A stretch of DNA of 27,850 bases from Chthoniobacteraceae bacterium (GTDB lineage: Bacteria > Verrucomicrobiota > Verrucomicrobiia > Chthoniobacterales > Chthoniobacteraceae): assembly GCA_031409335.1 (NCBI GenBank), contig JANNWY010000154.1:1-27850 (forward strand), read 5' to 3'. The translations under genes and the position numbers were made by a program. The notes beneath the pieces are model-generated. The model was not told the DNA's origin and did no database searches. It saw only the letters and a list, made by a program, of their open reading frames with translations. Below are positions 3,161-27,850 of this stretch, one piece after another (positions within the stretch are counted from its first letter, which is position 1; each line of letters opens with the position of its first letter).

Positions 3161-3362
3161 TTTGGGCGATTTTCAACGGAGCCGGTTCGTAGGCGAGTTT
3201 GCAAACTAGCTCGGGCGCGCGAAGCGAGACGGCGCTGCCTGCGGGCTCTCCGCCACCGCGCCGCACGAGGTGGCAAACCTCGCCTGCGCGAGATTGATAA
3301 TAAAGTTTCTGGCCAGTCCGCCCGCACGCCGGTATCCGCTCCGCGTCGCACGGCCCCACCCT

Positions 3363-6103
3363 ATGAACCGCCTCCCGCTCACCTGCCTCGCCCTCCTCCT
3401 TTTTTGCGAACCATCCGTGCTCGGCAGGGACGCTGCGCGCTTCACGCCGACCGAGCCGGAGATCACCACGATCCGCGGGCGCATCGTGAAGGTGCACATC
3501 CCGGACGGATTCGAGCGCGTGACCTTGCAAGTGCTCAATCCCCCGCGCCAACGGCTGCGCCGATCTTCCACCGACACCGGCGGCCAGTGGAAGACGGTCG
3601 GCGTGAACTATCCGCAAAAGCTCGGCGCGACGATCGACTTCCGGCTCGACCGGCTCACCCCGCGCCGGCTGCTGCGCGTCTTCGGCACGCGCTTGGAAAC
3701 GCTGCCAGGAAGCATGCTGACCGGCATCACGACCTTTCTGCCCGAGTCGGATGCGCTCAGCGTTCCCGTCATCGGGAATCTCCTTGCGCCCCTGAGTGAC
3801 GCACCTGCTTTCGCATCCACGAATGCTCTCGGCGCGGCAAACGCGTCCGGCACGCCCGCAGCGGTCGCCGTGGAAACCCGCGCGGTCGCCGAGGCCGACA
3901 TCTGGAAGCTGGATGGCGATCGGCTCTACTTTTTCAATGCACTCCGCGGACTCCAGGTCTTCGATCTCAGCAAACCCGACAGCCCCGCCCTGCTCGGCGC
4001 GCTGCGGATGCCGGCGATGGGCGAAGACATGTATCTGCTGGATGCGGCGCACATCGTCCTGCTGAAAAAATCGTGGAATTGGTATTGGAGCGGCGACCTC
4101 CTCACGACTCCCGACGCGGCGGCCAGCGCGGAAACGCTCCCGCTTGCCGCCGACAGCGCGGCGATCCGCGCCGCGCATTTCACGATCGCTCCGCAGCGCG
4201 AGGCGAACAGAAGCCGCGAAATCGTCATCGCCGATGTGCGCGATGGCCAGCCGCGCGTGGTCGGCAGCGTGCCTTTCGATGGCACGGTGCGCGAGAGCCG
4301 GATGGTGGGCAAAGTCCTCTACCTCGCCACCGACACATATCGGCCCGCCACCCCGGGCGCGCAGCCGCAGTGGGGACTCGCGGTCACCTCTTTCGACCTG
4401 CACGATCCAGCCCATCCGGTGCGGCGCGCCAGCATTCATCTCGGCGGCTGGGCAAATGCCGTCACCGCCAATGACCGCACTTTGCTCGTCGCAAAATCGG
4501 GCGCGCAGGGCGGCACCGAAATCGACATCCTCGACATCTCCGATCCGAACGGCGCGATGACGCGCGGTGGCTCCGTGTCGGTCGTCGGCAGTGTCGCGGA
4601 CAAGTTCAAGCTGCGCGAAGTGGGCGGCGTCCTCACCGTCGTCTCGCAGAAATGGCGCGCGCACGCGCAAGGAAATCGACGATCTGCTGAATCTTCCGGC
4701 CAATGTGCGCCCGCCCGATTTCGTCAGCGCGTCGTCGGTCGGCATCACCGCGGTGAATACTTTTTCCCTCGTCAGCCCCGCCGCGCCAGTGCCGCTCGGC
4801 ACGCTCGATCTCGCGCTGGATGAAACGCTGCACGCCACCCGCTTCGACGGCGACCGGCGGCGCTTTCCTCGTCCCGTACTGGAACGATCCGGCTCCGTAC
4901 GACACCTATTCGTCCACCTGGATTCCAAACCCCAAGGCCCCATCCGTGGATGCGGAAGCGATCGACGCAGGCAGCGTGGCTGACGTTACCGTGAGGCAGA
5001 TTTACATCGGAAAATTGGCGGGGCACTGGGAGCACGTGAAGACCGGCACGATCGACCCGCCGGGATACTGGTCTCCGAGCAACGTCTGGCGCAACACCCA
5101 GCGCGTCTTCGCATTCGATGTGCGCAATCCCGCGCGGCTTCGGTTCGCATCATACATCAAGATTGGCAACGACCAGCCGTGAGATGTCGATTCGCCCGTC
5201 GCAGTCGATGGCACAATCTTCGCCAGCTATCGGCACCTCGGTTCGCCAGTCACCTCGAAAGATTTTGCCGCCGCAAACACGAGCGACCCAAACGCATTTG
5301 CGAGGCCGGAAATCACGCGTCAGGGCCGCCACTTCCTTCAGTCCGTGGACTACTCGAATCCGCTGCGTCCAGTCCTCTCGCCCGACCATCCGAATCTCCC
5401 GGGACGTCTGATCGGGACGGCTCCCGGAGGCGCGATTCTTTTCACCATGGGCCGCCAGTACGACGCAATTACGGGTGCCATCTTCGGCTACCAGCGCATG
5501 CTCCACGCCAGCGCGCTCGACGGCAAAGTCGTCCACCTCCTCGACCAGCTCCCGCTGACCCAAACCGACTGGCCGCCATCCTTACTTCGCGGGCGGACGA
5601 TTTTCCAACTCCAAACCCAGCCCGCGAAAATTTGGGTGCCATCCAACGAGCCGCCGCCCGTCCGCGATGTGATTGTTGGCGAAGAGTTCACCTTGTCAGG
5701 CACGCTAACCCTGCCCGGCTTCACACCCATCCACGGCGATGCTCTCTTCACCGGCCAGCCTTACCTCCACTGGAATCGCGGCACCTACGAGGACAATCCG
5801 AAAAAGAGCACCCTCACGACTTGGGAACTCCGCGCGGATGGAAAGTTCGCGCAACTCGATGAAGTCGAACTCGCCCACGAGAGCACCTTCCACCTTATTG
5901 GAAATCTCGGCGTCACCTACGAGCGCGAGAATCAACCGCGCTTGCTCGATGTCACCGACCCTGCAAACCTCCGCGTCCTTGGCTACCGCAGCTTCGAGGG
6001 CGCGCCGTACCTGAACTACCAATTTGCCGACGGTGCCGTCGGCAGCGGCCTATGGGTGCCTGCTGGCCAGCACGGACTCGAAGCCATCCTCTTTCCGAAG
6101 TAG
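3363..6103 (+). pseudogene. Secreted beta-propeller domain protein (Beta_propel / PF09826-like), disrupted
   Basis: Signal-like MNRLPLTCLALLLFC at 3363; VAEADIWKLDGDRLY and ETLHATRFDGDR motifs. Frameshift near 4660, frame change or deletion near 4858, in-frame TGA at 5180-5182; the same frame then stays open to TAG at 6103. Confidence 0.8.
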
Positions 6104-6168
6104 GAAAATGCGCGGGCGGCTGGTTCGTTCCCATAAGTGCGATTGAAAGTGGCGGCAGCTTACGGAAA

Positions 6169-6248
6169 TCGTCCTCGTCCTCCTACCTACTCGTCCTCTA
6201 TGTAAGCACTCTTTTCGACGACGTGTTGGTGTTGTAGGACGTGGACGA
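6169..6248. repeat. Degenerate (TCGTCC)n/(GGACGA)n palindromic repeat between convergent genes
   Basis: TCGTCCTCGTCCTC...CTCGTCCTC at 6169-6200 is imperfectly complementary to 6215-6248 (...AGGACGTGGACGA). Confidence 0.6.
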
Positions 6249-6256
6249 CAGCTTCT

Positions 6257-7666
6257 TCAGAATCCGAAGACGCTCCGCACTGCCTGCACCGTTTGCCGCT
6301 GCTCGAAGTAGTTGCAGTGATGCACGGTGCGCGAGTCACCGAAATCGTGGGCAACGTTCTTGATGAGACTCATCGCTGGCTTGGGTTCGGCAATTTCACC
6401 AGTTTGGTCCATCGAGTCCAAATCGACCACGAGATCGTTCGCGCCCGGAAAGACCGCGTCCGCCGCAGTGTCGAGAAAGGACGCGCCGGGACGCGCGACA
6501 AACGATTTCAAAAAGCCCCACACGCCCGATTCGACAGGCTCGAAATTCGACCGGACGACCCAGTAATGAACTGGCTTGGTAGCGTCGGCAAAATCGAAGG
6601 CTCCCGTGTTCACACGCAAAGCGCGCAGCTCAGGATTCGAGCCATGCCGCGACTGCGCGGCGATGCCGGGGATCATCGCCACGATGGCATCCGCGAGCGG
6701 CGTGCTCAGCGCGCCAGTCACGCGCGCGAAAAATCCCGCGAGCGAACCCGCCAACGCGAGCAGCGGACCGCCCGCCATGCCAGCAGCCAGGCCAACGGCT
6801 TCTCCCGCGTTTGAAAGAAAATCCATGACGGCCCTGATGCGCGCGGGTGCGGCGAGGCTGGTGCCTGCGAGCGGCGCACCGACCATGATGACGCGGCAGC
6901 GGGTCTGCTCCTGGCGGAAGCCTTCGCAAAACCAGCGTGCCACCAGCCCGCCGCGACTATGCGCGATGATATCGAGCGTCTTCGGCACACCGTGCGCAAG
7001 TTTCGCCGCAAGATCGAAGGCATTCAGCATCGGGCTCATCGCGAGCGTGGGATGATCGAATGCGAGCACGAAGTCGTAGCTGGTGAGCGCCGCGGAAAAC
7101 ATCGCATCGCCGCCGGGTGCCTTCCCCAAGCCGCGCAGCACCGCGTCATTATCGCTGAAGGTGCCATGAATCAGCAGCAGCACGTTCTTTTCCGCAAGTT
7201 TACCCAGGATACCAGGATCGAGCGGCAGGAGGGTTCCATCCTTCGCGAACTGGCGCAGGCCCCAGAGCTGACCTTGCGCATTCCACGCCGGGCGCGAGAG
7301 CCGCCGGTCCGCCGCGATCAATAGGTCACTTACTTTTGAAGTCTCCTGCTTCTCAAACAAGGTCTGGCTGAGAACGATGGGTGCCGCGAGTGGCGCACGA
7401 CGCAACCCACGCCGCTTCCCAAGTGCTTCATGCCCGGGACCCGGCGAGTGCGGCCTGCCGATCTGCCAGCGCAGCAATCCACCGTCATCGCGCACCAGAT
7501 TCAGCGCCCGACTTTCGAGCGCGGCCCGCTGCGGGGCGGCGCGCATTTTCTTCGCCGAAACCACCTCCGCGAGTGGCTCGCAACCGATGTCGCCGAGCAC
7601 GCCGCCGACGATTTCCCGCACCAGAGGATCCTGCGCTCCGACATCCCGAGTGGCCTCCTTCTTCAT
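6257..7666 (-). CDS. Alpha/beta hydrolase (lipase/PGAP1-like, of the type usually linked to CHAT domains)
   Basis: LLIHGTFS oxyanion strand, AFDHPTL, nucleophile elbow AHSRGG, candidate acid NDLVVD and His in VHHCNYF; about 160-aa N-terminal extension; no signal peptide. Confidence 0.88.
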   Translation of the reverse strand: MKKEATRDVGAQDPLVREIVGGVLGDIGCEPLAEVVSAKKMRAAPQRAALESRALNLVRDDGGLLRWQIGRPHSPGPGHEALGKRRGLRRAPLAAPIVLSQTLFEKQETSKVSDLLIAADRRLSRPAWNAQGQLWGLRQFAKDGTLLPLDPGILGKLAEKNVLLLIHGTFSDNDAVLRGLGKAPGGDAMFSAALTSYDFVLAFDHPTLAMSPMLNAFDLAAKLAHGVPKTLDIIAHSRGGLVARWFCEGFRQEQTRCRVIMVGAPLAGTSLAAPARIRAVMDFLSNAGEAVGLAAGMAGGPLLALAGSLAGFFARVTGALSTPLADAIVAMIPGIAAQSRHGSNPELRALRVNTGAFDFADATKPVHYWVVRSNFEPVESGVWGFLKSFVARPGASFLDTAADAVFPGANDLVVDLDSMDQTGEIAEPKPAMSLIKNVAHDFGDSRTVHHCNYFEQRQTVQAVRSVFGF

Positions 7667-7670
7667 CGCA

Positions 7671-9977
7671 TCAAGCCACCGTGCCCTGCGTGATGATCGC
7701 CAGCGGAGTCACGCCTTTTTCGCGCGCAGTCTGCACGTCGATCATGCCATCGAACTCTTCCGGCCCACGCAGGTCGGCGAGCAGTTGCCGCGATTCGCTG
7801 ACCGCGTCGGTGAAAGAACGTTGCAGGGGAATGTAGGTCGCCTCCACTGGCACGAGTTCACCCTTGAGCACCGCCGCGCGAATCCCGGCAAGGTGATGCG
7901 GCTCGGCGAACATCCATGGCTCCGAAGCATTTTTTTCGCGCCCGCCGCCGAGCACTTTTTCCTGCGTCACTTTTCCGGTGGCTTTTGCGTGCTTGGGCAT
8001 TTTCGTCAATCCCTCGATGAATCCCACGCGGGCACTTTCGCTCGTCCAATAGCCCGCGAAGGCATGACCGCTGGTCAGAAAGATGACTGGAAAAATCCCC
8101 ACGTGTTCCCAGCAAGACGCAAGTAACAGAGCCAGCTCAATGCAGGTTCCGCGGCGTGCCCGCAGGATTTCCTCCGGCGTGCGCAGGCGCTGCGACGCAT
8201 TGGTATAGGATGGCGGTGGATTGACGTAGTCGAGTCGCAAGGTGTGCTGCAGCGCCGCCCAGATAGCTCGCGTTTGCAGAGCCACTCCCTCGTCGGGATT
8301 GGAGCCAAAGCCACCCTGATAGCCATCGAAGCCCGCAGTCGGCTGATCGCACAAAGCGCGAAGAAAGGGCTGCGACGCGCTGAGAATATCACGCACCGCT
8401 GGGTCGCGCGGGAAAACGAACGAAGGCAGGAAATGCCGCCCCGAGGTATCATCACGCCACTCATCGCATGGCAGCAGTTTGATCGACTTAAGAAGATGAA
8501 ACACCTGCACTGCTCCGCACTTGATGGCGATTTCCACCGTGGCCAGCAGCGTCTCACCGCGCTGACGCAGGAGCTGCGATCCGAGCGGCAAGGCAACACT
8601 CGCAGCGAGGTCTTGCTGGCGGGGAGCCTCTTCGGGAAGGTCCACAAAGAAGTGGCATTCGGCGGGTCGATCCAAGCCAGTGTCGAGCCGGACGGTGACT
8701 TCCAGCGGGTCCATCACACCCTCGCGGATTTTGGTAACGGTGAACCCTTTGAAAAGACCGCCGCGGCTGTTGTGAAGTACGGAGTAGTTCAGCGCATCCT
8801 CGAGATCGCAATTCACCGGCAAAGCCGCCTTCGCGTCCGCCGGTTTGATCGCGCCGCCAGCGGCCGGGATGCCAAACTCCACCAGCGTTTCGTCTTGAGG
8901 TTTGGCTGCCGCGCGTTTGCCGATTAAATCGACGGCAGACCAAAGCGTCACGGTTCCCAAGGCATTTGGGTCGGCTTGAGATTTATTGGCTGCCAGTCCA
9001 GCCCGCAACGCCCCGAGCGCATCCGGTTCCTTTTTCCAAGCACGGTAGAATGCTCCGAAGAAGACCGGGATGCTGGCATCCATCACTTCGCCGTGAAAGC
9101 CGATGGCTATTTTCGCACCATGCGCCAAGGCCAGCGGAGCCAGTCTCCGCCCCGTATAACACGAGCTGAATACGACAATCTCCGCACCGTGCGACGCAAC
9201 GGTCTCGGCCACATCCTCCGTCAGCCGCTCGTCGATTCCCTCCTTGAGTTGCTCCAAGTCTTTAGCGGAAACCGCCACACCTTTCTCGGCGGAATTCAGC
9301 ACGAGGTGGACGATCCTTGGCTTTTTCGCAGCCACTTCCGCCTCAAGCTCCAGCAGCGACTTTGCGCCCAAGGTTTGCATCGTGCCTTGCAATGCTGCCT
9401 CAATCGCAGCCCGCTCGGTTTTGTAATCGAAGCCCGCTGCCTCCGCGCATTCCGTCACAGCAAAACCCGGAGCACCCGTCGAGATCGCTCGCTCATCGCC
9501 ACCGGACAAAACGCGCACCACCACGAAGTCTTCCTGAGCGATCCGAGTCCTTTCATCCTTGGTGGCAAGTGCCAGCAAAGCTTCCCAGGGAAATACCCGC
9601 ACAGCCCAGCCTATCGACTCCCCCTGCCATGCCATTTCCACCTGCACCACTCCGCTCGCCGCCGCTGCCACGATGAAATCCTCGACGCCCTTTTTGGTGA
9701 GACCGCCCGACAGACCGAGTTCCAGAATCGCTTCGTGCGCATTGGCGCGCCATGAACGCACCTCCTTTTCCTTGTCGATCTGCCTGCCACGATCGGACGA
9801 AAGCAGACGGTTCCACGCCAGTGCCCTTGGGTAAAGCACGCGATCTTCCACCGCCGCCGAAAGCTCCATCCCGCCACCTTCGCGCAATATCACCTTACCC
9901 AGCACTGCCTTGCTCGCCCGCACAGGCGCTTTCGCTGTCTTCTTGGATTTTGGAGGGGTGATCGCTTTCGTGGCCAT
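7671..9977 (-). CDS. CHAT (caspase-like) domain fused to a beta-rich linker and transglutaminase-like domain
   Basis: Start moved to ATG 9977 (MATKAIT) to avoid overlapping the upstream gene. CHAT-like motifs FPWEALL, PRIVHL, VVFSSCYTG, AIGF..V.D....FFGAFY. C-terminal YVNPPPSY..QRLRTP..GTCIELALLLASCWE..GHAFAGYW..VPVEAT matches the transglutaminase-like N-terminal module of DUF4011/DUF3320 helicases. Confidence 0.8.
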   Translation of the reverse strand: MATKAITPPKSKKTAKAPVRASKAVLGKVILREGGGMELSAAVEDRVLYPRALAWNRLLSSDRGRQIDKEKEVRSWRANAHEAILELGLSGGLTKKGVEDFIVAAAASGVVQVEMAWQGESIGWAVRVFPWEALLALATKDERTRIAQEDFVVVRVLSGGDERAISTGAPGFAVTECAEAAGFDYKTERAAIEAALQGTMQTLGAKSLLELEAEVAAKKPRIVHLVLNSAEKGVAVSAKDLEQLKEGIDERLTEDVAETVASHGAEIVVFSSCYTGRRLAPLALAHGAKIAIGFHGEVMDASIPVFFGAFYRAWKKEPDALGALRAGLAANKSQADPNALGTVTLWSAVDLIGKRAAAKPQDETLVEFGIPAAGGAIKPADAKAALPVNCDLEDALNYSVLHNSRGGLFKGFTVTKIREGVMDPLEVTVRLDTGLDRPAECHFFVDLPEEAPRQQDLAASVALPLGSQLLRQRGETLLATVEIAIKCGAVQVFHLLKSIKLLPCDEWRDDTSGRHFLPSFVFPRDPAVRDILSASQPFLRALCDQPTAGFDGYQGGFGSNPDEGVALQTRAIWAALQHTLRLDYVNPPPSYTNASQRLRTPEEILRARRGTCIELALLLASCWEHVGIFPVIFLTSGHAFAGYWTSESARVGFIEGLTKMPKHAKATGKVTQEKVLGGGREKNASEPWMFAEPHHLAGIRAAVLKGELVPVEATYIPLQRSFTDAVSESRQLLADLRGPEEFDGMIDVQTAREKGVTPLAIITQGTVA

Positions 9978-9997
9978 GACGGTTCGAACTACAAAGA

Positions 9998-11308
9998 CTA
10001 TGCCATGCGCGCGGCGAGAAACGCTCCCCAGCCGCCCTTTGCAAAATCGAGGTTCTTGTAAAGCGGCGATACCTTGCCCAATGGCAGATAGATCGAAAGG
10101 CCGTGCGACGCTTTCACCTTGGTATTGGGAGCGCTGTTGGCAAAGACACAAGCTGCCACCGCATCGCGCACCTTCTTCGCGACCAGTGCGAAACCCGGCA
10201 GGCTCGCTGCCAGGCGGCTGGCAAAGTCGGTGAGATCCACATAGTCGGCATGTTCGTAGCCTTGCGCCCGGACCCGCGCGTTCATGATCGCGCCTTGCGT
10301 GGCAAAGTCTCTGGTCTTGTAAGCCTTCGCGAGCAATGTGCCGAGTTCGTTGGCCGCTTTCTGCACAGTCTTCAGGGCAGCGAGATCGAAGCCGGATTGT
10401 GTCACTGCCTGGCTCTTCGAGTAGGAAGCGACAAACTCCTTCACGATTACCTTGGTCAATTCACGTCCGTCCATCTCGGGCTTCGCTGCCAAGACCTTCA
10501 AAATGCGATCGTAGGGCCAGCCTTCACCGGGTTCCACTTCCTGGGAACCGCAAAAGACTTCGCCGGCCTGCTGCACTTGCAGTCCAGTTTCCACCATGCT
10601 CATCAGGCACGCATCCATGCCGATCACGTCGAACTTTCGTTTGGCGGCCCTGGCCGCGGCGATGAACACCTTCTTCATCTCAACGCTGTCCAGAAAGTCC
10701 TGCGCATCGTCGTCAAACGCGATCGCACGACGTTTTCCACCCACTTTTTCCAACTGAAATGCGGTCAGGAAAAATGGCCCGCGGAAACGCTTCTTCGCCG
10801 CACTGCGATGAATGAATCCGCCCGGCAGCATGGGTCGCCCTCGCGCTCCGCTGCGACGTTGCCCCGCCGCGCTCGGTGGCCGCGATGGCGGCGGATTCAG
10901 CCCGCGCCGTTTCGCTTCGGCATAGATGTCCGTGTCGTCCCAGCCCGAGCCATGATTCCATAGCACTGCCATCGTGCGTTTGGCGGGATACTGGGTCCGT
11001 CCCCATTTCAGAAAATCAGCGAGCACCTTGGGATCGCCAGTATTGGTTTCGCCAATGGACTGCACCACATCGGTTTCGGCGGTCGTGCCTTTTCGCACCC
11101 GATAGCGCTTCGCGGGGACACCGGCGGCAGCGGTGTCGCGCTGCACGAGAACGTGGATGCGATCGCTTGATCCGACCTTCTTCATCTCGTCGATGTCATC
11201 GCCTCCGAAGTCGTCGAGATCATTGTCGCCAGCCATGTAGATCAGGATGGTCCAGTCAGCCAGCTTGGCTGGCTTTGAAGTGGTCGGTGCGGGTTTGGTC
11301 TTTTTCAT
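9998..11308 (-). CDS. Clostripain-family cysteine peptidase (C11), no signal peptide
   Basis: WTILIYMAGDNDL, ETNTGDP, catalytic His in WNHGSGW, catalytic Cys in DACLMSMVE, GSQEVEPGEGWPY, YVDL and HGLSIYLP. Confidence 0.95.
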   Translation of the reverse strand: MKKTKPAPTTSKPAKLADWTILIYMAGDNDLDDFGGDDIDEMKKVGSSDRIHVLVQRDTAAAGVPAKRYRVRKGTTAETDVVQSIGETNTGDPKVLADFLKWGRTQYPAKRTMAVLWNHGSGWDDTDIYAEAKRRGLNPPPSRPPSAAGQRRSGARGRPMLPGGFIHRSAAKKRFRGPFFLTAFQLEKVGGKRRAIAFDDDAQDFLDSVEMKKVFIAAARAAKRKFDVIGMDACLMSMVETGLQVQQAGEVFCGSQEVEPGEGWPYDRILKVLAAKPEMDGRELTKVIVKEFVASYSKSQAVTQSGFDLAALKTVQKAANELGTLLAKAYKTRDFATQGAIMNARVRAQGYEHADYVDLTDFASRLAASLPGFALVAKKVRDAVAACVFANSAPNTKVKASHGLSIYLPLGKVSPLYKNLDFAKGGWGAFLAARMA

Positions 11309-11314
11309 ATGGGT

Positions 11315-12928
11315 CTATTTGGATGCCTTTGCTTTCGTTTTGGATCTGGCTTTGGCGCCACTGCGGCGCCCGCGGGTCGGGCCGACTGGCACGCCGGCGC
11401 CGATCCCACGCTCGACGACACAACCGAATCGCGCCTTGCCAGCATGATCGAAGACCTGGAACTCGAAGGCCCCCGGCTTGGTATCGATCCTGCCAAAACC
11501 AAATGGCACTACGCGTTGGCCTTCGTAGATCGGCGCATCGGCATCGAGCCGGTTCTCTTCCCAAAGCACGTCCGCGATCCTCTTCTCAACCTCCAGATTC
11601 TTCTTCGTCACGGGCACGCCGCCATGGCCAAGGCAGGCGCAAAAACCGGGCGCGTCCTTCAAGCGTTGGTTAGTCCGTTGAGCCTTTGGTTTGAAGACAA
11701 CGCACCGATGCTCGTGACCCCAAATCCACGCGTCAATTTGAGAATACACGCCCGCTGCTTTCAGCGATGCCACCGCTTCGTCCGCGTGCTGCGATTCGCT
11801 GGTGCGGGACGATCCGGGTTGATGGTGCGTGAGCAGGATGCAGCCCTTGGCGGGATTCCGCGCCTGGCTCATCCACTTCACCTGCTCCTTGGTCAGCACC
11901 CCATTTTGGCCGCCGTAGTCTTTCAGCGATGGCTTGCCAAAGATCGCGTGACCGAGGGATGGAAGATTCCATGAAGTATCCAATCCGAAGATCTGCCAGT
12001 CCTTGTCTTCTATCAGAAAAAAGCTGGATGGCTCGCCCGAGTCGTCGCCATGCCAGCGGAGCATATTGTCCGTGCGCAGCAAGGTATCGAAGTAACCCTC
12101 GCCGCCGGAATACATGTCGTGGTTTCCATTGAGGCTCCACGATCCGATCCGATTCCGCTGTGCCGATGTGACCGGCCAGAACGGAATCATGCGCTCCAGA
12201 TATTCATCCTTTTCACCCACGTAATAAACGTCGCCAAGATGGATGACATGGCACTGGCGGGAGCCATCGCTGGCATTGAGTTGCTCGCGGATGCGCTGGG
12301 TGACTTGCGCCGCCAGGCTGAGCCCGGTGCCCCAGTCGCCAAACAGGAACAGGCTCAGCGGCTTTGCGGATCGTGCCACGCGCGCCGGGTTGGGATTGAA
12401 GGCGCGGCGCTTGGCGAATAGCGCGCCGAACTTCGCCTTGAACCCATCCAGCCCATAACGAGCGTCTTCCCCTTCGATGAATGGAGCCTTCGTCACACCC
12501 GCGCGTTTCCCTTTCGCAGCGGGGACCGCTCGCCGCCGCAGCCGGAGCATCGGCGATGTGTCCGAGGCTGCCTTTCCCACACCACGCCGCACCGTTGTTT
12601 TCGCAGTCGGAGCCGGCGCGTTAGCCTGCACCTCTCCAGATTCGATCGCGATGCGCGTCAGACCAGCCTGAAGGCCGCAGGTGACCGGATCTTTCGGGAT
12701 GTAAGGCGTTCCCTGCGGATGCTCCCTGTCCTTCTTTGCATTCGCGAGCGCATCACCCAGCGCAGCGATGGCGCGCGCGAGCTGCGCCGGAGTGATCTTG
12801 TGCTTTCGCAGTTCAGCGAGAGTCGCCTTGTCTTTCTTGATGACCTTCTTTTGCAAAGCCATCAGCCAGTCCCGCTGCGCGCGAGTTTCGGAAAGCACGT
12901 ATTCGCGATCGAGGTAGTCGGAGATCAT
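11315..12928 (-). CDS. Calcineurin-like metallophosphoesterase with N-terminal extension
   Basis: All five metal-binding motifs: GDWGTG, HLGDVYY, GNHDMY, LTHH, WGHEH; about 190-aa N-terminal helical and basic region. Confidence 0.93.
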   Translation of the reverse strand: MISDYLDREYVLSETRAQRDWLMALQKKVIKKDKATLAELRKHKITPAQLARAIAALGDALANAKKDREHPQGTPYIPKDPVTCGLQAGLTRIAIESGEVQANAPAPTAKTTVRRGVGKAASDTSPMLRLRRRAVPAAKGKRAGVTKAPFIEGEDARYGLDGFKAKFGALFAKRRAFNPNPARVARSAKPLSLFLFGDWGTGLSLAAQVTQRIREQLNASDGSRQCHVIHLGDVYYVGEKDEYLERMIPFWPVTSAQRNRIGSWSLNGNHDMYSGGEGYFDTLLRTDNMLRWHGDDSGEPSSFFLIEDKDWQIFGLDTSWNLPSLGHAIFGKPSLKDYGGQNGVLTKEQVKWMSQARNPAKGCILLTHHQPGSSRTSESQHADEAVASLKAAGVYSQIDAWIWGHEHRCVVFKPKAQRTNQRLKDAPGFCACLGHGGVPVTKKNLEVEKRIADVLWEENRLDADAPIYEGQRVVPFGFGRIDTKPGAFEFQVFDHAGKARFGCVVERGIGAGVPVGPTRGRRSGAKARSKTKAKASK

Positions 12929-13014
12929 GGTTTTGTGGAAATCGAGATCGACTCCATGATCCTAGAGCGTGGTGCGGCCCGAGGTCGAGAACGGACTACG
13001 GCGGAATGCAGCGC

Positions 13015-14394
13015 GGGGTGTCATCAATTGTGGTGCACAGCTGGGATGGATTGGGTGGGCCAGAAGGCGTCCCAATGTTGATTGGCAGGCAGGACGCAGA
13101 GTTGGGCGAGGGCGTCGGCGTTGGCGGGCAGCCAGGCGGTGCCGGCGCCTTTGAGCCGGGCGTGCAGGACGTGCTTGTGGCCGCTTTCGATGGGCAGTTT
13201 CCGGGCGATGGCTCCGGCGTAGTCCAGCGGGGCGCGCCGGTTCTCCAGGTAGCGCCGGGCGGCGCGCACCGGGGCGAGCGCTCCGCGCTTGAGGCGCTTT
13301 TGCTGGGTGTGCAGCCAGTGGCGCGGCGCGTCCAGACGGCAGACCGGCCCGGCGGCGGCGAGGGATTCGCTGGCGTGGTAAAAGTCCGTCAGCACGGTGG
13401 CCTGCGTGCCGAAGAATTCGCGGCTCTGGAGGTGATCCATTCCGCACCTTCGGCCCACGACTTGGATGCGGCTGGTGAGCGCCCAACCCACCTCGCGCGT
13501 GCACTGGCCCCAGCACCGCCCGGCCTCGGCGACACTCCAAAAGGTCGCCGCTTAGGTGGCCTGCGCCGCACCTTGGGCCCGGGCCGCGAGCAGCCGCATT
13601 TCCTTCCACTGCCGGGGCCGTTTGCCGGCGCGGGCGCGGTTCGGATCGACGGTGCAAACCATGGTGCCATTGGCCTCGGCCACGAGGGCCCTGGCACCCT
13701 TGGCGGGCAGGATGCGGAAGCTCTTCTGATACACCTTCGCGAGCACCTGCCCCGCCCGCCCCGCGTGCGCGAGCGTCACCATGCGCACGGCCGGGGCATT
13801 CAGGCTGAAGCCGCAATGTTCCCGCAGCCGCGCCCCGCCCGCGGCAAAGGAATGCTCGGCCCCGAAGTCCGTGAGCACTCGCTGCGGCCGCCGCGATTTG
13901 CCCCGCGCGCTGACCTGCACGCGCGCGGTGACAGGCCGCAGATAGCCGCACCCCGGCTCCCGCCAGATCCGCTCAGCGACGGTGACCGCGCCGAAGACGC
14001 ACCACCAGGTCAGCGCTTTTTTTTCGCACCGAAGCTCGCGGCTGGGCGACCGCAAACTCGCCCGCCGTGCGCTCCTTGGCCTGCGCCGCCCATTGGTGCA
14101 CCGTCTCGCTGCCAGGCCAGCGCACCTCCTCGACCAGCAACTCCTCGACCTCGTCGGCCGTGCGCAACTCGCCCCCTTCGACCTCGGTCAGCGCGAGAAT
14201 GGCCTTGAAGCGCACCCATAAATCCGGGCGTCCTCGCAGCCTTTCGAGCATCTGGATTTCCCGTTTGGTGCGCGGGTTGGTTCCATGGTTTTGCTTCACG
14301 GATTTGAAAAACTAACCACATCTTTCAAAAAGTACATTTCTAGTATTTATAGCCGGACCGCTCCAATTCCATCCACCTCTTTCAATCAGACCCC
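13015..14394 (-). mobile_element. Decayed ISKra4-like (UPF0236 / Mutator-type DDE) insertion sequence
   Basis: Imperfect terminal IRs GGGGTGTCATCAATTGTGGTG (13015-13035) and reverse complement of 14374-14394 GGGGTCTGATTGAAAGAGGTG (14/21 identical) enclose a broken transposase. No clear target duplication. Confidence 0.7.
13024..14299 (-). pseudogene. ISKra4-like transposase pseudogene
   Basis: Fragments across frames: ADEVEELLVEEVR; KKALTWWCVFGAVTVAE...LTDFGAEHSF; VVG/EGAEWI (degenerate GDGAxWI); DFYHASE; LPIESGHKHVLHARLKGAGTAW. Frame break at the A8 run 14017-14024, TAA at 13552-13554, further shifts near 13430-13455. Confidence 0.85.
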
Positions 14395-14467: not shown

Positions 14468-14539
14468 GACCCTATCGTCCAGCGGTTAGGACACCGCCCT
14501 TTCACGGCGGATACACGGGTTCGAATCCCGTTAGGGTCG
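14468..14539 (+). tRNA. tRNA-Glu (anticodon TTC), CCA not encoded
   Basis: Acceptor GACCCTA/TAGGGTC plus discriminator G; D arm GTCC-AGCGGTTA-GGAC; anticodon arm CCGCC-CTTTCAC-GGCGG; T arm ACGGG-TTCGAAT-CCCGT. Confidence 0.98.
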
Positions 14540-14610
14540 CTTGTATCCATCAGGGTTTGCGGGCGATTCAAGATTTGGCGTGACAAAGCGGGAGGATTTT
14601 CTTCCTGAAA

Positions 14611-22645: not shown

Positions 22646-23791
22646 TCATTTTTTGCCGAGCATGTCATCGGAATGGGGCAGTTCCGGCCACTCGCTGATT
22701 CGCCCCCACCACCGCCGCAGCCAGCGTAGGTGTTCCTTCGGTTTGGGCATCCGATTCGCAACGCCGATGTTGCCCAGCGACTTGTCGGGCCAGAGATGGA
22801 GGCGGTCCGCCAAGCCGAATTCATCGACCAGTCGTTCCACGGTCCGCAGCGAATTCACGGCATAATCCTGCCACTGCTCGCGTGTCTCGAAGACGTCGGT
22901 CTTCAACGTCACACCGAGTTCTTCCGCGTGAGATTGGATGCGTTCCACGTTCTCGGCGCGAATGTTGATCGGTTCGTGGAAGATGGTCACGGGATCAACT
23001 TCGGCGACAGCGCGGAGTGTGGCCCGTAAATCGGCTTCGTCGCACTCCGGGTAGGTGGGTGCGATGGCCACATAGACGTGCAGGCCGGCTTCGCTGGCGG
23101 CGTGCAGCGCGGCGAGGCGTTGCGACGGCGCAGGGGCTTTTGGTTCGTAAATCCTAGCGAGGTCGTTGCGCAGTGTCGGCAGGCTCATGCCGAACAGCAG
23201 GCGCGGGCCGAGAGTCTTGAATAATTCGAAATCCGCCCGAGCTAGCGGGCTGCGCGTGAGGATGCGGACGTTGAGCGTGGAATGGTCGCGAATCAGCTCC
23301 AGCGAACGTCGCACAAGCCGGCGGGCGTGCTGCCCGAGCATCCGCTGCCGCTCGGGGTCGGGATGGCGGATGACCTGATAGGGATCGGTGGTGCTGCAAT
23401 ACATCACCGCGCGATTGCCGTCGGGTTTGAGCTGCGAGCGCGGCGTGTTCTCCGCCGAGCGCAACGACGCGAGGAATTTGTCCTCATCCCACGGACGGAG
23501 CAGAACGTAATAGCCCCACTCGGCATCCGGGTCTTTCACCCCATATTCGGCGAGCTTCGGCCCCTGCTTGATGGTCGCGGCGCTGGGCACGTAACAGAAT
23601 CGGCACGCATGCGAGCAACCGACCGCGACGTTGAACGCCCAATTCGACAGGCTCTTGTAAACGAAGTTGTTCGGCGCGATGACCGCGGGCGATGACCAAA
23701 TGCCGACGCGATGGTCAGGATGCACCTCGCGCCGCTGCACGCGACTTGGCGCTTTGAGGATTGCGCCGGTTGTGTCCAGTAAGGCAGTCAT
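22646..23791 (-). CDS. Radical SAM protein, spore photoproduct lyase-like clade
   Basis: NVAVGCSHACRFCYV (CxxxCxxC), STTDPYQ, ILTRSPL and YEPKAPAPSQRL; ATG 23791 overlaps the upstream TGA (ATGA). Confidence 0.88.
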   Translation of the reverse strand: MTALLDTTGAILKAPSRVQRREVHPDHRVGIWSSPAVIAPNNFVYKSLSNWAFNVAVGCSHACRFCYVPSAATIKQGPKLAEYGVKDPDAEWGYYVLLRPWDEDKFLASLRSAENTPRSQLKPDGNRAVMYCSTTDPYQVIRHPDPERQRMLGQHARRLVRRSLELIRDHSTLNVRILTRSPLARADFELFKTLGPRLLFGMSLPTLRNDLARIYEPKAPAPSQRLAALHAASEAGLHVYVAIAPTYPECDEADLRATLRAVAEVDPVTIFHEPINIRAENVERIQSHAEELGVTLKTDVFETREQWQDYAVNSLRTVERLVDEFGLADRLHLWPDKSLGNIGVANRMPKPKEHLRWLRRWWGRISEWPELPHSDDMLGKK

Positions 23792-24669
23792 TGTTTCAAA
23801 ATGTCTTGGGCAATCTTCACGGCCGTCTTTGCGCCGCGCTCGTTGCCTGCGGCAAAACATAGCAGGTAAAGCGGTGTGTTCGCCGAGTTGTGGAGTGCGA
23901 GCGGATTTTGGGCGACGCCGGGAAAGATGCTCGTGAGACGTTCGACAAAGAACCGCCCGATGGAATCGAAATCCGCGACTTTCTCAGTCTTCGCCTCGTT
24001 GCCAAAGAGGCCTTCCTCGGTCTTGGTTTCGTAGAATGCGTCCTGCCAGTCACGGGTGCCGAAGAAGTCATCCAGCCGCCTCTGCCAAGCTTCGGGGATT
24101 TTCGCGTCGCGTCGCAGGAGGCTGTTCACCCCGATGCCGAGAGGAAAGAGAATCCAAAGATCAATGGCCTTGGTCTTGGCGATAGCTTTCATCGTGTCCC
24201 AAGTGACCTGCATGCCGAAGGGATCGAGGAACAGGACCGCTCGATTCCGACTCCATTTGCGATTCTCGCAGAGATCCCGCAGGTAGGCATTCGCGTCAGC
24301 GTTGACGACAACGATGTCGCTCCCGAGTTCGGGAAACTCATCTTTCAGTTTCACGAGTTCATCGACGCGCTCCGAATCTTTTTCGATGAAGATGTATTTT
24401 GTGAACCGAGGTTCGACCTTGAGCGCGATGCGGGCCGAACCGTCAAGGAAGCTGGCAGCGTCGTCGTCAGCGAGTTCAGGGAACAGCAATGTTCCCTCCT
24501 TCTTTTTCGCACGCGGCGTGTTATACCCCGTGCCTGCAAAGGCGTCGATGTAGGCAAATCGGAAATCCTGGCTCCGCATGATCTTCGCGTAGGCCACGAG
24601 GTATTTCCTCACACGTTCCAACTTCTCCGCCGTCCAATCGCCGCCGAACTGTTGTTTCTGAGCGCTCAT
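23788..24669 (-). CDS. tcmP: Three-Cys-motif partner protein (SAM-dependent methyltransferase-like fold)
   Basis: FGGDWTAEKLERVRKYL, YIDAFAGTG, GSARIAL, FIEKD, DAN, LFLDPFGMQVTW, DLWILFP and LYLLCFA. Start set at ATG 24669. Confidence 0.9.
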   Translation of the reverse strand: MSAQKQQFGGDWTAEKLERVRKYLVAYAKIMRSQDFRFAYIDAFAGTGYNTPRAKKKEGTLLFPELADDDAASFLDGSARIALKVEPRFTKYIFIEKDSERVDELVKLKDEFPELGSDIVVVNADANAYLRDLCENRKWSRNRAVLFLDPFGMQVTWDTMKAIAKTKAIDLWILFPLGIGVNSLLRRDAKIPEAWQRRLDDFFGTRDWQDAFYETKTEEGLFGNEAKTEKVADFDSIGRFFVERLTSIFPGVAQNPLALHNSANTPLYLLCFAAGNERGAKTAVKIAQDILKQ

Positions 24670-24982
24670 GGAATCCAAATTTGCCGGTCCGTTTTCTATT
24701 TGCGAACCAGATTTTGAGAAGAAACGAAAATGCACTGAGGAAAATGTTGATCGTCAACCCGCGAGGATCCGGGACGGTGCTTTCTCTCATACTCCATCGC
24801 CTTGAGAAAATTCATGGACGCAAAACCCCACCGGCGCACGATTCCCATGGATCCCATGCTCACATATCGCGCGTCGCGCACCGATTTACTTTGCGCTTCC
24901 GTGGGCGCGAACCACGGCTTGACCTTCCCGCACGTTGACGGGCCTAATCGCCCCTCGCACGCGTCAATCCAGTTCTCTATTT

Positions 24983-27850
24983 ATGTCTAAAGATCGTATC
25001 GCCATCATCGGCATTGGCTGCCGTTTCCCCGGTGGAATCAATGACTCCCACGCCTTTTGGAAACTCCTCGTCGAGGGGCGCGAGGCGGTGGGGGAAATCC
25101 CGGCGGATCGCTGGAACGTGGAGCGCTTTTTTGACGCGGAGCCGGGGCTGGCGGGCAAGTCGATCGCGCGGCGCGGCGGATTTCTCGACAGCATCGATCA
25201 GTTCGATCCGCAGTTTTTCGGCATCTCGCCGCGCGAGGCGCCCTACGTCGATCCGCAGCAGCGGCTGCTGCTCGAGACGGCGTGGGAGGCGATGGAAGAC
25301 GCGGGGCTCGTGCTCGATCTCGAACGCGGGACCGACATCGGCGTGTTCGTCGGCATCTCGCACAACGACTACCAGATCATCCAGGGCACGCCGTGGGATT
25401 CCGCCGGGATCAGCCCGCACTCGCCGACGGGAAGTGCGCACAGCATCGCGGCGAATCGCATTTCTTATTGCTTCAATCTGCGCGGCCCGAGCGTGGCGAT
25501 GGACACGGCGTGTTCGTCGGCACTGACGGCGGTCCATGCGGCGTGCGAGCACATCCGCGCGGGACGTGGCGATGTCGCTCTCGCGGGCGGCGTGACGGTG
25601 ATGATCACGCCCGGCGGGTTCATCGGATTTTCGCAGGCGTCGATGCTGTCGCCGGAGGGAAAGTGCAAGGCGTTCGATGCGGCGGCCAACGGCTTCGTGC
25701 GCGGCGAGGGCGCGGGGATGGTGCTTTTGAAAAGGCTCGATCAGGCGCTCGCAGACGGCGATCCGATCCACGGCGTCATTGTCGGCACGTCGATCAATCA
25801 GGACGGCCACACGAACGGCATCTCGCTCCCGAGCACCGAGGCGCAGGCGCGGCTCGTGCGCGACGCGTGCGCGGATGCGGGCATCGCGCCGTCGCAGATC
25901 AGCTTTGTCGAAGCGCACGGGACGGGCACGGCGGTCGGTGACCCGATCGAGGCGCACGCGCTCGCGGAGGCGCTCTGCGTCGATCGCCCGGCGAATGCGC
26001 CGCTGCCCATCGGTTCAGTCAAAACGAATCTCGGCCACTTGGAAACCGCCGCGGGCATCGCTGGTCTGGTCAAGGCCGTGCTCGCGCTCCAGCACCGCCA
26101 GATCCCGGCGAGTCTGCATTTTGAAAAGCCGAATCCGCACATCGATTTCGCCGCGCTGAAACTCCGCGTGCCGGTCGCGCTGGAGCCTTTCCCCGAGAGC
26201 GACGGACCGCTTTTCGTCGGCGTGAATTCCTTCGGTTTCGGCGGCGCGAACGCGCACGTCATTCTCGAGGAGCCGCCGCTGCGCGCTCACGCGGAAAATC
26301 CCGACACGCTGACCGAGCGCGCGTGGCCCATCGTGCTCTCCGCGCGCTCCGAGGAAGCACTGCGCGGGTCCGCGTTGCACCTCGCCGCATGGCTCGAAGA
26401 ACGCGCGCACGCCAACGGCAGTTCGCCCACGTTGCCCGATCTCGTTTACAGTCTCGGCGCGCGGCGCAATCACCACCCGCACCGCCTCACCGTCGTCGTG
26501 AATTCGACGAGCGAACTCGTGCAGGAACTCGACGGTTTCGCGATCAAAGAGGAAAGCCCGAAGGTCCGCGCCGGCTTCTCGCCGCGCCCGGAGCACGCGC
26601 CGCGCGTGGCCTTCGTGATGAGCGGCCAGGGCCCGCAATGGTGGGGCATGGGCCGCGAGCTGATGCGGCACGAGCCGGTCTTCCGCGAGACCATGGAGCG
26701 CTGCGCCGCGGCGATGAAACCGTATGCGCGCTTCTCCCTGCTCGAAGAACTCGGACGCACCGAGGAAACGTCGCAACTGAGCCGCACCGAGATCGCGCAG
26801 CCCGCGATTTTCGCGATGCAGGTCGCGCTGGCGGAGCTGTGGAAATCGTGGGGCGTGCAGCCGACGGCGATTGTCGGGCACAGCGTCGGCGAGATCGCGG
26901 CGGCGTGTGTCGCGGGCGTGTTCAGTTTGGAGGAAGGCGCGCGCGTCATCGCACTGCGGGCGCGCTTCATGGGCGACTGCGCGCGCGACGAAGGCACGAT
27001 GCTCGCCGTCGGTCTCGGCGAAGAAGAGGCGCGCGCGCTCATCGCCCGCCACGATCGCACCGTGACGATCGCCGCCTTCAACGGCCCGCGCTCGCTGACC
27101 CTCGCGGGCGCCCGCATTTCCCTCGAAGCCATGCTCGCCGAGTTGGAGCCGCAGGGCGTGTTCGCGCGGCTCGTGCGCGTCGATCATCCTTTCCACCACC
27201 CGCTGATGCAGCCGGCTTCCGAGCAGCTCGAGGAAGCGCTCGCGGACCTCGAATCGCAGCCCGACACGACCCCGTTTTTCAGCACTGTGAGCGGCGACCG
27301 CTGCCCCGGCGCAACGTGCGATGCGGCCCACTGGGGACGCGGCGTGCGGCAGCCCGTGCAGTTTGCGGCGGCGGTGAAAGCGCTCGCGGATTTCGGCGTG
27401 GATGTGTGGCTGGAAATCGGGGCGCATCCCGCCCTCGTGCATTCGATCCAGGAATGTCTCGCGGCTGGCGGCGGCAAGCCGGTGGTGCTCTCGTCGGCGC
27501 GTCGCGAACGCGAGCACGAGTCGCTTTTGGAAACCGCGATGGATTTGCACCGCGCTTGCGTGGCGCTGGATTTCGCGGCGATGACGCCCTCGCGCCGCCT
27601 GCTCGCGCTGCCCGCCTACGCGTGGGACAAAAGCCGCTGGTGGAATGAAGCGAGCGACTGGCGCGATGGCCGTCTTGGCACGGGCGGCAAGGGCCTGCTC
27701 GACATCCGCCTGCCGCGCGCGACGCCGACCTGGACGGCGCGGCTCGATGGCCGCCACATGGCTTTCCTCAAGGATCACAAAGTGGACAGCCACGTCATTT
27801 TTCCCGCCGCGGCGTTTGTCGATATGGTGCTGGAGGCGGGCGTGCAGTTG
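24983..27850 (+). CDS. Type I polyketide synthase, KS-AT-DH..., 3' truncated by window end
   Basis: Manual translation MSKDRIAIIGIGCRFPGG...; same-frame DPQQRLLLE, DTACSS (Cys 25511), HGTGT (25916), KTNLGHLE, GQGPQW, GHSVG (26876), HPFH (27185) and DH motif DHKVDSHVIFP (His 27776). Missing from the ORF track because there is no stop in the window. Confidence 0.97.
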   Translation, partial: MSKDRIAIIGIGCRFPGGINDSHAFWKLLVEGREAVGEIPADRWNVERFFDAEPGLAGKSIARRGGFLDSIDQFDPQFFGISPREAPYVDPQQRLLLETAWEAMEDAGLVLDLERGTDIGVFVGISHNDYQIIQGTPWDSAGISPHSPTGSAHSIAANRISYCFNLRGPSVAMDTACSSALTAVHAACEHIRAGRGDVALAGGVTVMITPGGFIGFSQASMLSPEGKCKAFDAAANGFVRGEGAGMVLLKRLDQALADGDPIHGVIVGTSINQDGHTNGISLPSTEAQARLVRDACADAGIAPSQISFVEAHGTGTAVGDPIEAHALAEALCVDRPANAPLPIGSVKTNLGHLETAAGIAGLVKAVLALQHRQIPASLHFEKPNPHIDFAALKLRVPVALEPFPESDGPLFVGVNSFGFGGANAHVILEEPPLRAHAENPDTLTERAWPIVLSARSEEALRGSALHLAAWLEERAHANGSSPTLPDLVYSLGARRNHHPHRLTVVVNSTSELVQELDGFAIKEESPKVRAGFSPRPEHAPRVAFVMSGQGPQWWGMGRELMRHEPVFRETMERCAAAMKPYARFSLLEELGRTEETSQLSRTEIAQPAIFAMQVALAELWKSWGVQPTAIVGHSVGEIAAACVAGVFSLEEGARVIALRARFMGDCARDEGTMLAVGLGEEEARALIARHDRTVTIAAFNGPRSLTLAGARISLEAMLAELEPQGVFARLVRVDHPFHHPLMQPASEQLEEALADLESQPDTTPFFSTVSGDRCPGATCDAAHWGRGVRQPVQFAAAVKALADFGVDVWLEIGAHPALVHSIQECLAAGGGKPVVLSSARREREHESLLETAMDLHRACVALDFAAMTPSRRLLALPAYAWDKSRWWNEASDWRDGRLGTGGKGLLDIRLPRATPTWTARLDGRHMAFLKDHKVDSHVIFPAAAFVDMVLEAGVQL

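Follow-up and report, generated by a model that had tools for sequence, protein, structure and literature searches.

We analysed a window of 27,850 nucleotides (nt) from a Chthoniobacteraceae bacterium (contig JANNWY010000154.1, assembly GCA_031409335.1), which contains a cassette of four intact, co-oriented open reading frames (ORFs) on the minus strand, separated by 6, 20 and 4 nt in the order from gene 1 to gene 4. Gene 1 (11315-12928, minus strand, 537 aa) encodes a calcineurin-like metallophosphoesterase (Metallophos, PF00149, E 1e-10) and gene 2 (9998-11308, minus strand, 436 aa) a clostripain-family C11 cysteine protease (Peptidase_C11, PF03415, E 1e-43); we regard both as accessory. 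The core consists of gene 3 (7671-9977, minus strand, 768 aa), whose product combines a putative pseudo-CHAT domain, an Ig-like domain and a transglutaminase/papain-like domain (CHAT, PF12770, E 1e-6, residues 186-333), and gene 4 (6257-7666, minus strand, 469 aa), which encodes a lipase-fold alpha/beta hydrolase of the DUF7379 family (PF24096, E 3e-34).

An initial annotation, made from the letters of the sequence, had described four closely spaced genes beside a decayed insertion sequence and a tRNA. The ORFs, an NF033572 match and ARAGORN confirmed this layout, Pfam bore out the domain calls with all four matches above the cut-off, and the named motifs GNHD, DACL, SSCY, GTCI and HSRGG are all present. 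The proteins were said to have no signal peptides, and in a hydrophobicity scan alone no 19-residue window above 1.22 starts within the first 25 positions of any of them, which is consistent with that remark. The reported preference for A/T-ending codons is real but modest: G+C content at third codon positions (GC3) is 0.70, 0.69, 0.67 and 0.73 in genes 1 to 4, as against 0.74-0.83 in 11 of the 12 other genes of the window (0.69 in the TcmP gene). In a genome-wide GC3 comparison, with an ORF set that includes shadow ORFs, the cassette is no outlier.

The four-gene cassette is mobile and moves as a block. DNA homology to two congeners covers 6257-12928 (76%) and 6253-12941 (73%) and stops at the cassette ends, and the flanks of the cassette in both congeners differ from the flanking genes of the window. 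The two congener contigs reappear below as loci L013 and L014 and were counted once. For one congener, identity to our cassette proteins is 76-86%, while the patatin gene reaches 89%. A full-length gene 3 was recovered from two of four congeners (71-90% complete), from one other of the 60 relatives searched and from 2 of 401 genomes of the phylum including the source genome, a very patchy distribution; the locus is neither core nor syntenic among relatives. The records with the nearest homologues carry the labels Chthoniobacterales, Chthoniobacter, Verrucomicrobiaceae, Luteolibacter and, in one case, Planctomycetaceae.

Genes 3 and 4 form the conserved pair

We compared 92 gene 3 loci, which comprise 11 from genomes, the best 80 of 219 metagenome matches and L004. 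A hydrolase gene is present in 74 of the 92, and in 73 of the 87 with at least 600 nt downstream; in L028 it lies upstream of gene 3, and in L101 and L102 it is convergent. Dereplicated at 90% the set has the two genes as neighbours in 52 of 63 loci, and at 55% in 18 of 22. The clostripain gene was found in 12 of the 92 loci, the phosphoesterase gene in nine (plus L136) and all four genes in four, so that homologues do co-occur in other genomes as had been expected, but not as the conserved four-gene unit that the initial annotation proposed.

Both accessory genes belong to a close clade, mostly Verrucomicrobiota (L013-L030), in which C11 occurs in 12 and the phosphoesterase in nine of 18 loci. 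In L031-L103 the hydrolase is present in 67 of 69 loci and neither C11 nor the phosphoesterase in any of 73; the two were sought with single queries, and 32 of these 73 loci have at least 1.5 kb upstream. Because the hydrolase is near-constant, and C11 and the phosphoesterase are confined to the clade among the examined loci, the conserved unit is gene 3 with its hydrolase partner, of which the four-gene form represents a lineage-specific variant. Over 46 loci the pairwise identities of the two core genes are correlated (Spearman 0.51; highest permutation 0.26), which shows joint inheritance only.

In 29 of the 92 loci, for example at 12848-13477 on the minus strand of L049, the pair is followed directly by a convergent gene of about 210 aa with a HELAH or HEIAH motif (HEXXH, zincin-like). 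Its product has no Pfam or NCBIfam match.

Conserved sites in the core and accessory proteins

The structural model of the gene 3 product (mean pLDDT 81) comprises a CHAT domain (residues 25-353), an Ig-like domain (384-502) and a transglutaminase/papain-like domain (510-760). Its CHAT fold matches SAVED-CHAT 8TL0 (Z 17.4, rmsd 3.0, 174 aligned residues; VIA-align) and Craspase Csx29 7Y9X (Z 12.4), and Ig-type structures match with Z about 8.5. For the transglutaminase-like fold, the whole model gave middling scores with 3KD4 (Z 9.3), TglA and PNGase (Z 8.3) and 4XZ7 (within Z 8.3-9.3). In 15 of the 92 loci gene 3 is split at the same junction into a CHAT gene and an Ig-transglutaminase gene.

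The catalytic dyad of SAVED-CHAT has been named as His375/Cys422 (10.1101/2023.06.23.546230). We located both in 8TL0 by counting residues, the numbering being shifted by a constant 20; Cys422 is the Cys of LNACC. In the profile alignment HLVLNS of gene 3 pairs with HFIGHG, which carries His375; Asn228 therefore appears to replace the catalytic His. None of 51 close homologues has His in the Asn228 column, and no more than 2 of 140 family representatives (the query plus 139 sequences of at least 650 aa, clustered at 50%, among the best 150) carry a canonical HxxxHG motif. We read the CHAT domain as a pseudo-protease that has lost the catalytic His family-wide, an assignment made by alignment. 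The initial annotation had counted it as a second active clan CD protease, which would cut in sequence with the clostripain. Of the 51 close homologues 48 do keep Cys273, and all have His224, but the latter pairs with the leading His of HFIGHG and not with His375, and only 9 of the 140 representatives have Cys273 when distant members are included. Such a two-protease cascade is highly improbable.

The transglutaminase-like domain gives a different picture. Cys612 and His638 are found in 140 of 140 representatives, Glu712 in 139 and Asp747 in 136, and in the locus copies Cys612, His638 and Glu712 are kept in 92, 92 and 90 of 92. Because the CHAT motif is mostly lost and these three residues are near-invariant, the Cys-His-Glu centre is, as far as alignment can tell, the only conserved protease-type site in the gene 3/gene 4 pair.

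Residues 410-648 of gene 3 match the N-terminus of the ProA model NF058533 (E 3e-49; 167 bits against a cut-off of 1500). Prometheus is a four-domain defence protein (PMC13700489), and a transglutaminase-like peptidase has been predicted in giant SF1 helicase-Vsr proteins (PMC3710099). ProA (NF058533; PMC13700489; PMC3710099) shares with gene 3 the Ig-like and transglutaminase-like module with its GTC, GHA and ET motifs. Unlike gene 3, however, it is a single large protein with DUF4011, helicase, nuclease and DUF3320 regions, whereas gene 3 has 768 aa, carries the fused pseudo-CHAT domain and covers only the N-terminal part of the 1903-position model. Partial matches to gene 3 in the phylum sample lie in frames of 1666-2196 aa in 20 of 21 cases and keep the Cys in 19, the His in 17 and the Glu in 17 of the 21. 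Searches of plasmids with either core gene gave no full-length match; among the 40 listed of 78 plasmid matches to gene 3, most are annotated DUF3320 or DUF4011.

The gene 4 product has a lipase/phospholipase-like fold (Z 17.6; model pLDDT 87), and its triad Ser237/Asp411/His450 is kept in 104, 105 and 105 of 105 homologues. Arg42, Arg47, Arg85 and Arg90 are conserved in 94, 96, 104 and 100 of the 105 and flank a conserved N-terminal hairpin; the second cluster, Arg85/Arg90, sits in a low-confidence loop (71-100). The clusters often read R-A, as at Arg90-Ala91, where Ala is found in 93 of 105. Both are present in 102 of 105 hydrolases, and each pattern also occurs in 22-25% of windows of the hydrolase core. 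By analogy with a known hydrolase zymogen discussed below, gene 4 is predicted to be a zymogen with cleavage sites in its Arg clusters.

DUF7379 relatives on plasmids lie within proteins annotated CHAT or caspase in eight of eight matches. One of these, WP_051420469.1 of Ruegeria pomeroyi, is a DUF7379-CHAT fusion of the same hydrolase family (hhalign 99.7%) with Arg-rich N-terminal linkers. Unlike the cassette, it is one polypeptide with intact CHAT motifs (HFIGHG and LNAC), adjoins an AAA ATPase and has no transglutaminase-like domain that we could see. A pattern-limited search of viral contigs with the gene 3 or gene 4 alignment found no relatives. Clusters of both core proteins in the ESM Atlas are mostly from Pseudomonadota where the source is known, and from Acidobacteriota for one hydrolase cluster.

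In gene 1, D198, D233, N269, H270, H369, H405 and H407 are kept in 85 of 85 aligned homologues, and all five metal-binding motifs are present. The protein has a helical N-terminal region and an Arg/Lys-rich linker at about 105-148, which is weak in distant phosphoesterases. No PDB relative was found by sequence, and four more distant phosphoesterases have no core gene within their 4 kb loci. Metallophosphoesterases are among the protease-associated effectors of PMC12642450, and gene 1 is predicted to be a second latent effector.

Proteases of the clostripain family are specific for Arg and activate themselves in the insert between the catalytic His and Cys. Gene 2 resembles them in its fold by sequence, in an intact His119/Cys234 dyad that aligns to the solved C11 proteases 6N9J and 6MZO, and in the Arg-rich insert between the two residues; its NHG and DAC motifs are found in 11 of 11 full-length locus copies. 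It differs from clostripain in having no hydrophobic leader, in scoring 44 bits against an equivalog cut-off of 550 and in lying in an operon with predicted effectors.

Variants of the accessory genes were seen at several loci. In L025 (730-3771) and L026 (718-3759) the phosphoesterase and the clostripain share one open frame, possibly by a lost stop codon, the C11 part retaining a Met of its own, and the hydrolase is replaced by a canonical CHAT gene. At L136 (6423-11488) a HEAGH-motif protein of 471 aa stands between a divergent phosphoesterase and a gene 3 homologue, so that a HEXXH protein occupies the clostripain slot; this protein and the approximately 210-aa HEXXH protein have no detectable relatedness. 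L140 (4910-18948) combines a close C11 homologue with a caspase, an nSTAND1-WD40 protein and two unassigned ORFs with His-Gly motifs, and no gene 3 lies in that region.

A proposed proteolysis-gated effector

In a caspase-alpha/beta-hydrolase module, the caspase cuts the hydrolase zymogen twice at R-G, and the products are toxic (Evans 2025, PMC12642450). The suggestion of the initial annotation that a protease unlocks the hydrolase thus has a precedent. Caspase-hydrolase pairs have also been described by Kaur 2020 (PMC7159879), where inactive caspases in conflict systems are predicted peptide binders. Like that module, the cassette places a lipase-like hydrolase with an intact triad beside a clan CD fold. 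Conserved Arg-small-residue motifs at two places in gene 4 recall, by their pattern, the R-G sites of the Lysobacter hydrolase, to which they may correspond. In the cassette, however, the adjacent clan CD domain has no catalytic His and a transglutaminase-like centre is conserved instead, gene 4 has 469 aa compared with known hydrolase fragments that sum to about 33 kDa, and there is no fused sensor. The intact clan CD partner here is C11, present in 12 of the 92 loci. Gene 3 shares the CHAT fold with the SAVED-CHAT/PCaspase cascade and with Craspase Csx29, but the cassette has no SAVED domain, Cas gene or catalytic His, and no SAVED or Cas match was found among the four proteins or the scanned proteins of the window.

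We tentatively propose, with somewhat less than even confidence, that the cassette is a proteolysis-gated conflict effector directed against invaders. The dead CHAT domain would dock the arginine-rich N-terminal region of the hydrolase; on a presumed trigger, this region would then be cut by the transglutaminase-like Cys-His-Glu centre, acting as the switch. The freed hydrolase would probably damage lipids or other esters and may thereby be toxic. In this lineage the clostripain may serve as an Arg-specific amplifier, which could also cut the Arg-rich linker of gene 1. Such a system may have arisen from an ancestral CHAT-hydrolase unit that lost CHAT catalysis and gained the transglutaminase-like centre. 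The broader form of this proposal, in which a transglutaminase-fold protease with a dead caspase-like docking site took over the caspase's part in activating a lipase zymogen throughout a widespread immune module, with the clostripain as an intracellular amplifier, is rather doubtful.

Several observations weigh against the proposal. Of the 17 loci of the close clade that extend far enough to show it, only 6 have the hydrolase gene, so gene 3 persists there in its absence. The Arg background is lenient and flatters the enrichment of the Arg clusters, because the background windows were drawn from the folded core, and the basic clusters of gene 4 could bind membranes or nucleic acid. Glu712 was assigned as the third triad residue by alignment alone, and Asp747 is also conserved. 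Transglutaminase-fold enzymes can cross-link or deamidate instead of cutting. The cassette has no sensor domain (STAND, SAVED or TIR). Around the widespread pair lie mainly genes for transporters and metabolic enzymes, and of the 90 neighbours scanned outside the clade a single one matches PADLOC (raw count). A predicted complex of gene 3 (375-762) and gene 4 (30-469), with a score of 0.26 (mark 0.32), was used neither for nor against the proposal.

The clostripain itself suggests one alternative, namely that an Arg-specific protease (the clostripain here, another elsewhere) makes the cut, with gene 3 as scaffold or sensor and its transglutaminase-like domain acting on a different target. The intact C11 dyad with its Arg-rich insert would fit, and the protease slot looks exchangeable, being taken by CHAT (L025/L026), caspases (L018, L135) or a HEXXH gene (29 of 92 loci; L136). 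Possible activators in trans are also encoded in the source genome, in the form of three other CHAT proteins, two with intact His-Gly/Cys motifs, and a caspase (contigs C195, C214, C251 and C204). Yet the Arg clusters persist outside the clade, where no C11 match was found in any of the 73 loci (32 of them with at least 1.5 kb upstream), and a close C11 is also found without an adjoining gene 3 (L140). We consider this alternative unlikely.

A reading without any proteolysis takes the Arg clusters as basic binding patches, the pseudo-CHAT domain as an antitoxin-like inhibitor of the hydrolase and the transglutaminase-like domain as an enzyme that modifies or cross-links proteins. The family-wide loss of CHAT catalysis, the splitting of gene 3 at the CHAT/Ig junction and the Lys/Arg low-complexity stretches in which all four cassette proteins are rich are in line with it. 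However, the Arg-small-residue columns are position-specific (Arg90-Ala91) and match the R-G logic of the tested module (PMC12642450), so that we hold this reading to be improbable.

We scanned 134 of 155 representatives of neighbours within 3 kb with PADLOC-DB 2.0 (library from 2023) at E 1e-12. Matches were found in nine of the 134, eight of them among the 44 around the close clade and L004; three of these eight, a phosphoesterase, a sigma-54-type ATPase and a cNMP-binding protein, look generic. Neighbours in the four-gene clade include a type I restriction-modification system, a Gabija B gene, a SIR2 protein with nSTAND1-WD40 (L016) and an amidase-caspase (L018). Other neighbours are pesticin-like lysozymes (L019, L135), a caspase with a subtilase (L135) and the canonical CHAT genes of L025 and L026. 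The defence-island enrichment anticipated by the initial annotation thus did not hold for the widespread pair, whose defence-island context is weak. None of the four cassette proteins matches a PADLOC family at E 0.1, in agreement with the view that the combination corresponds to no named system.

The module may instead serve stress-induced or developmental remodelling of lipids and envelope, autolysis or antagonism between cells. The housekeeping flanks of the widespread pair, the amidase and lysozyme-like neighbours in L018, L019 and L135 and the lack of a PADLOC model for the cassette favour such a role, whereas the very patchy presence, the changing flanks and the domain shared with ProA-type helicases argue against it; we give it a small chance.

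The protease-gated effectors described in the literature covered use trypsin-like, caspase-like or subtilisin-like proteases, whereas here a dead CHAT domain and an invariant transglutaminase-like centre stand beside a lipase-fold partner. Neither the pseudo-CHAT-transglutaminase/DUF7379 pair nor a clostripain in such a module is described in the running text of the literature searched (figures and supplements lay outside the search), nor in the accessible portions of PMC8195603, PMC12799240, PMC13069673, PMC3482391 and 10.1101/2025.09.03.673762. The terms CHAT, clostripain and transglutaminase do not occur in the main text of Evans 2025 (PMC12642450), and the literature search returned no paper on DUF7379. 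If the broader form of the proposal holds, it would add a new class of activator for protease-gated effectors, and the same domain in helicases of the Prometheus type would gain a role that can be tested; the question also concerns the N-terminal domain of ProA, which was proposed as a peptidase by prediction alone (PMC3710099). The two-gene minimal system and the clear point mutants make the question easily tested.

Surroundings of the cassette

A fragmented insertion sequence of the ISKra4 family (about 13015-14394, minus strand; transposase fragment NF033572, E 8e-14) lies outside the conserved unit, with its edge 86 nt upstream of gene 1. Its transposase region is spread over several frames, its ends are imperfect GGGGT sequences, and related copies are present on other contigs of the source genome. 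Beyond it lies a tRNA-Glu(TTC) gene (14468-14540, plus strand; ARAGORN). Integration of the cassette at the tRNA is not supported, because the tRNA 3' end has no att-like duplicate of at least 12 nt within the window and no tRNA is present in 14 homologous loci. No sigma-70 promoter match was found, and terminator-like sites occur at chance level.

A contig of sequencing run X1 spans 3642-13186 without an insertion or deletion (indel); X1 is possibly the source of the assembly, so this is not independent confirmation. In the intergenic region 3' of gene 4 (6104-6256), outside the ORFs, the window and the X1 contig differ at ten single bases, four of which also differ in X2. The adjacent beta-propeller gene (3270-6103, plus strand) is broken into at least three frames; the frames of most homologues are about 1050-1500 aa, and the assembled contigs have no indel here. 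A palindromic repeat of about 75 nt (about 232-315) is REP-like and matches several congener contigs on both strands. On the other side of the cassette, a radical SAM gene and its TcmP three-Cys-motif partner (TIGR04474; PADLOC PDC-M41A, E 1e-124), the gene with the low GC3, occupy 22646-24735 on the minus strand. The window ends within the start of a gene that resembles a type I polyketide synthase, judged from its translation (24935-27850, plus strand).

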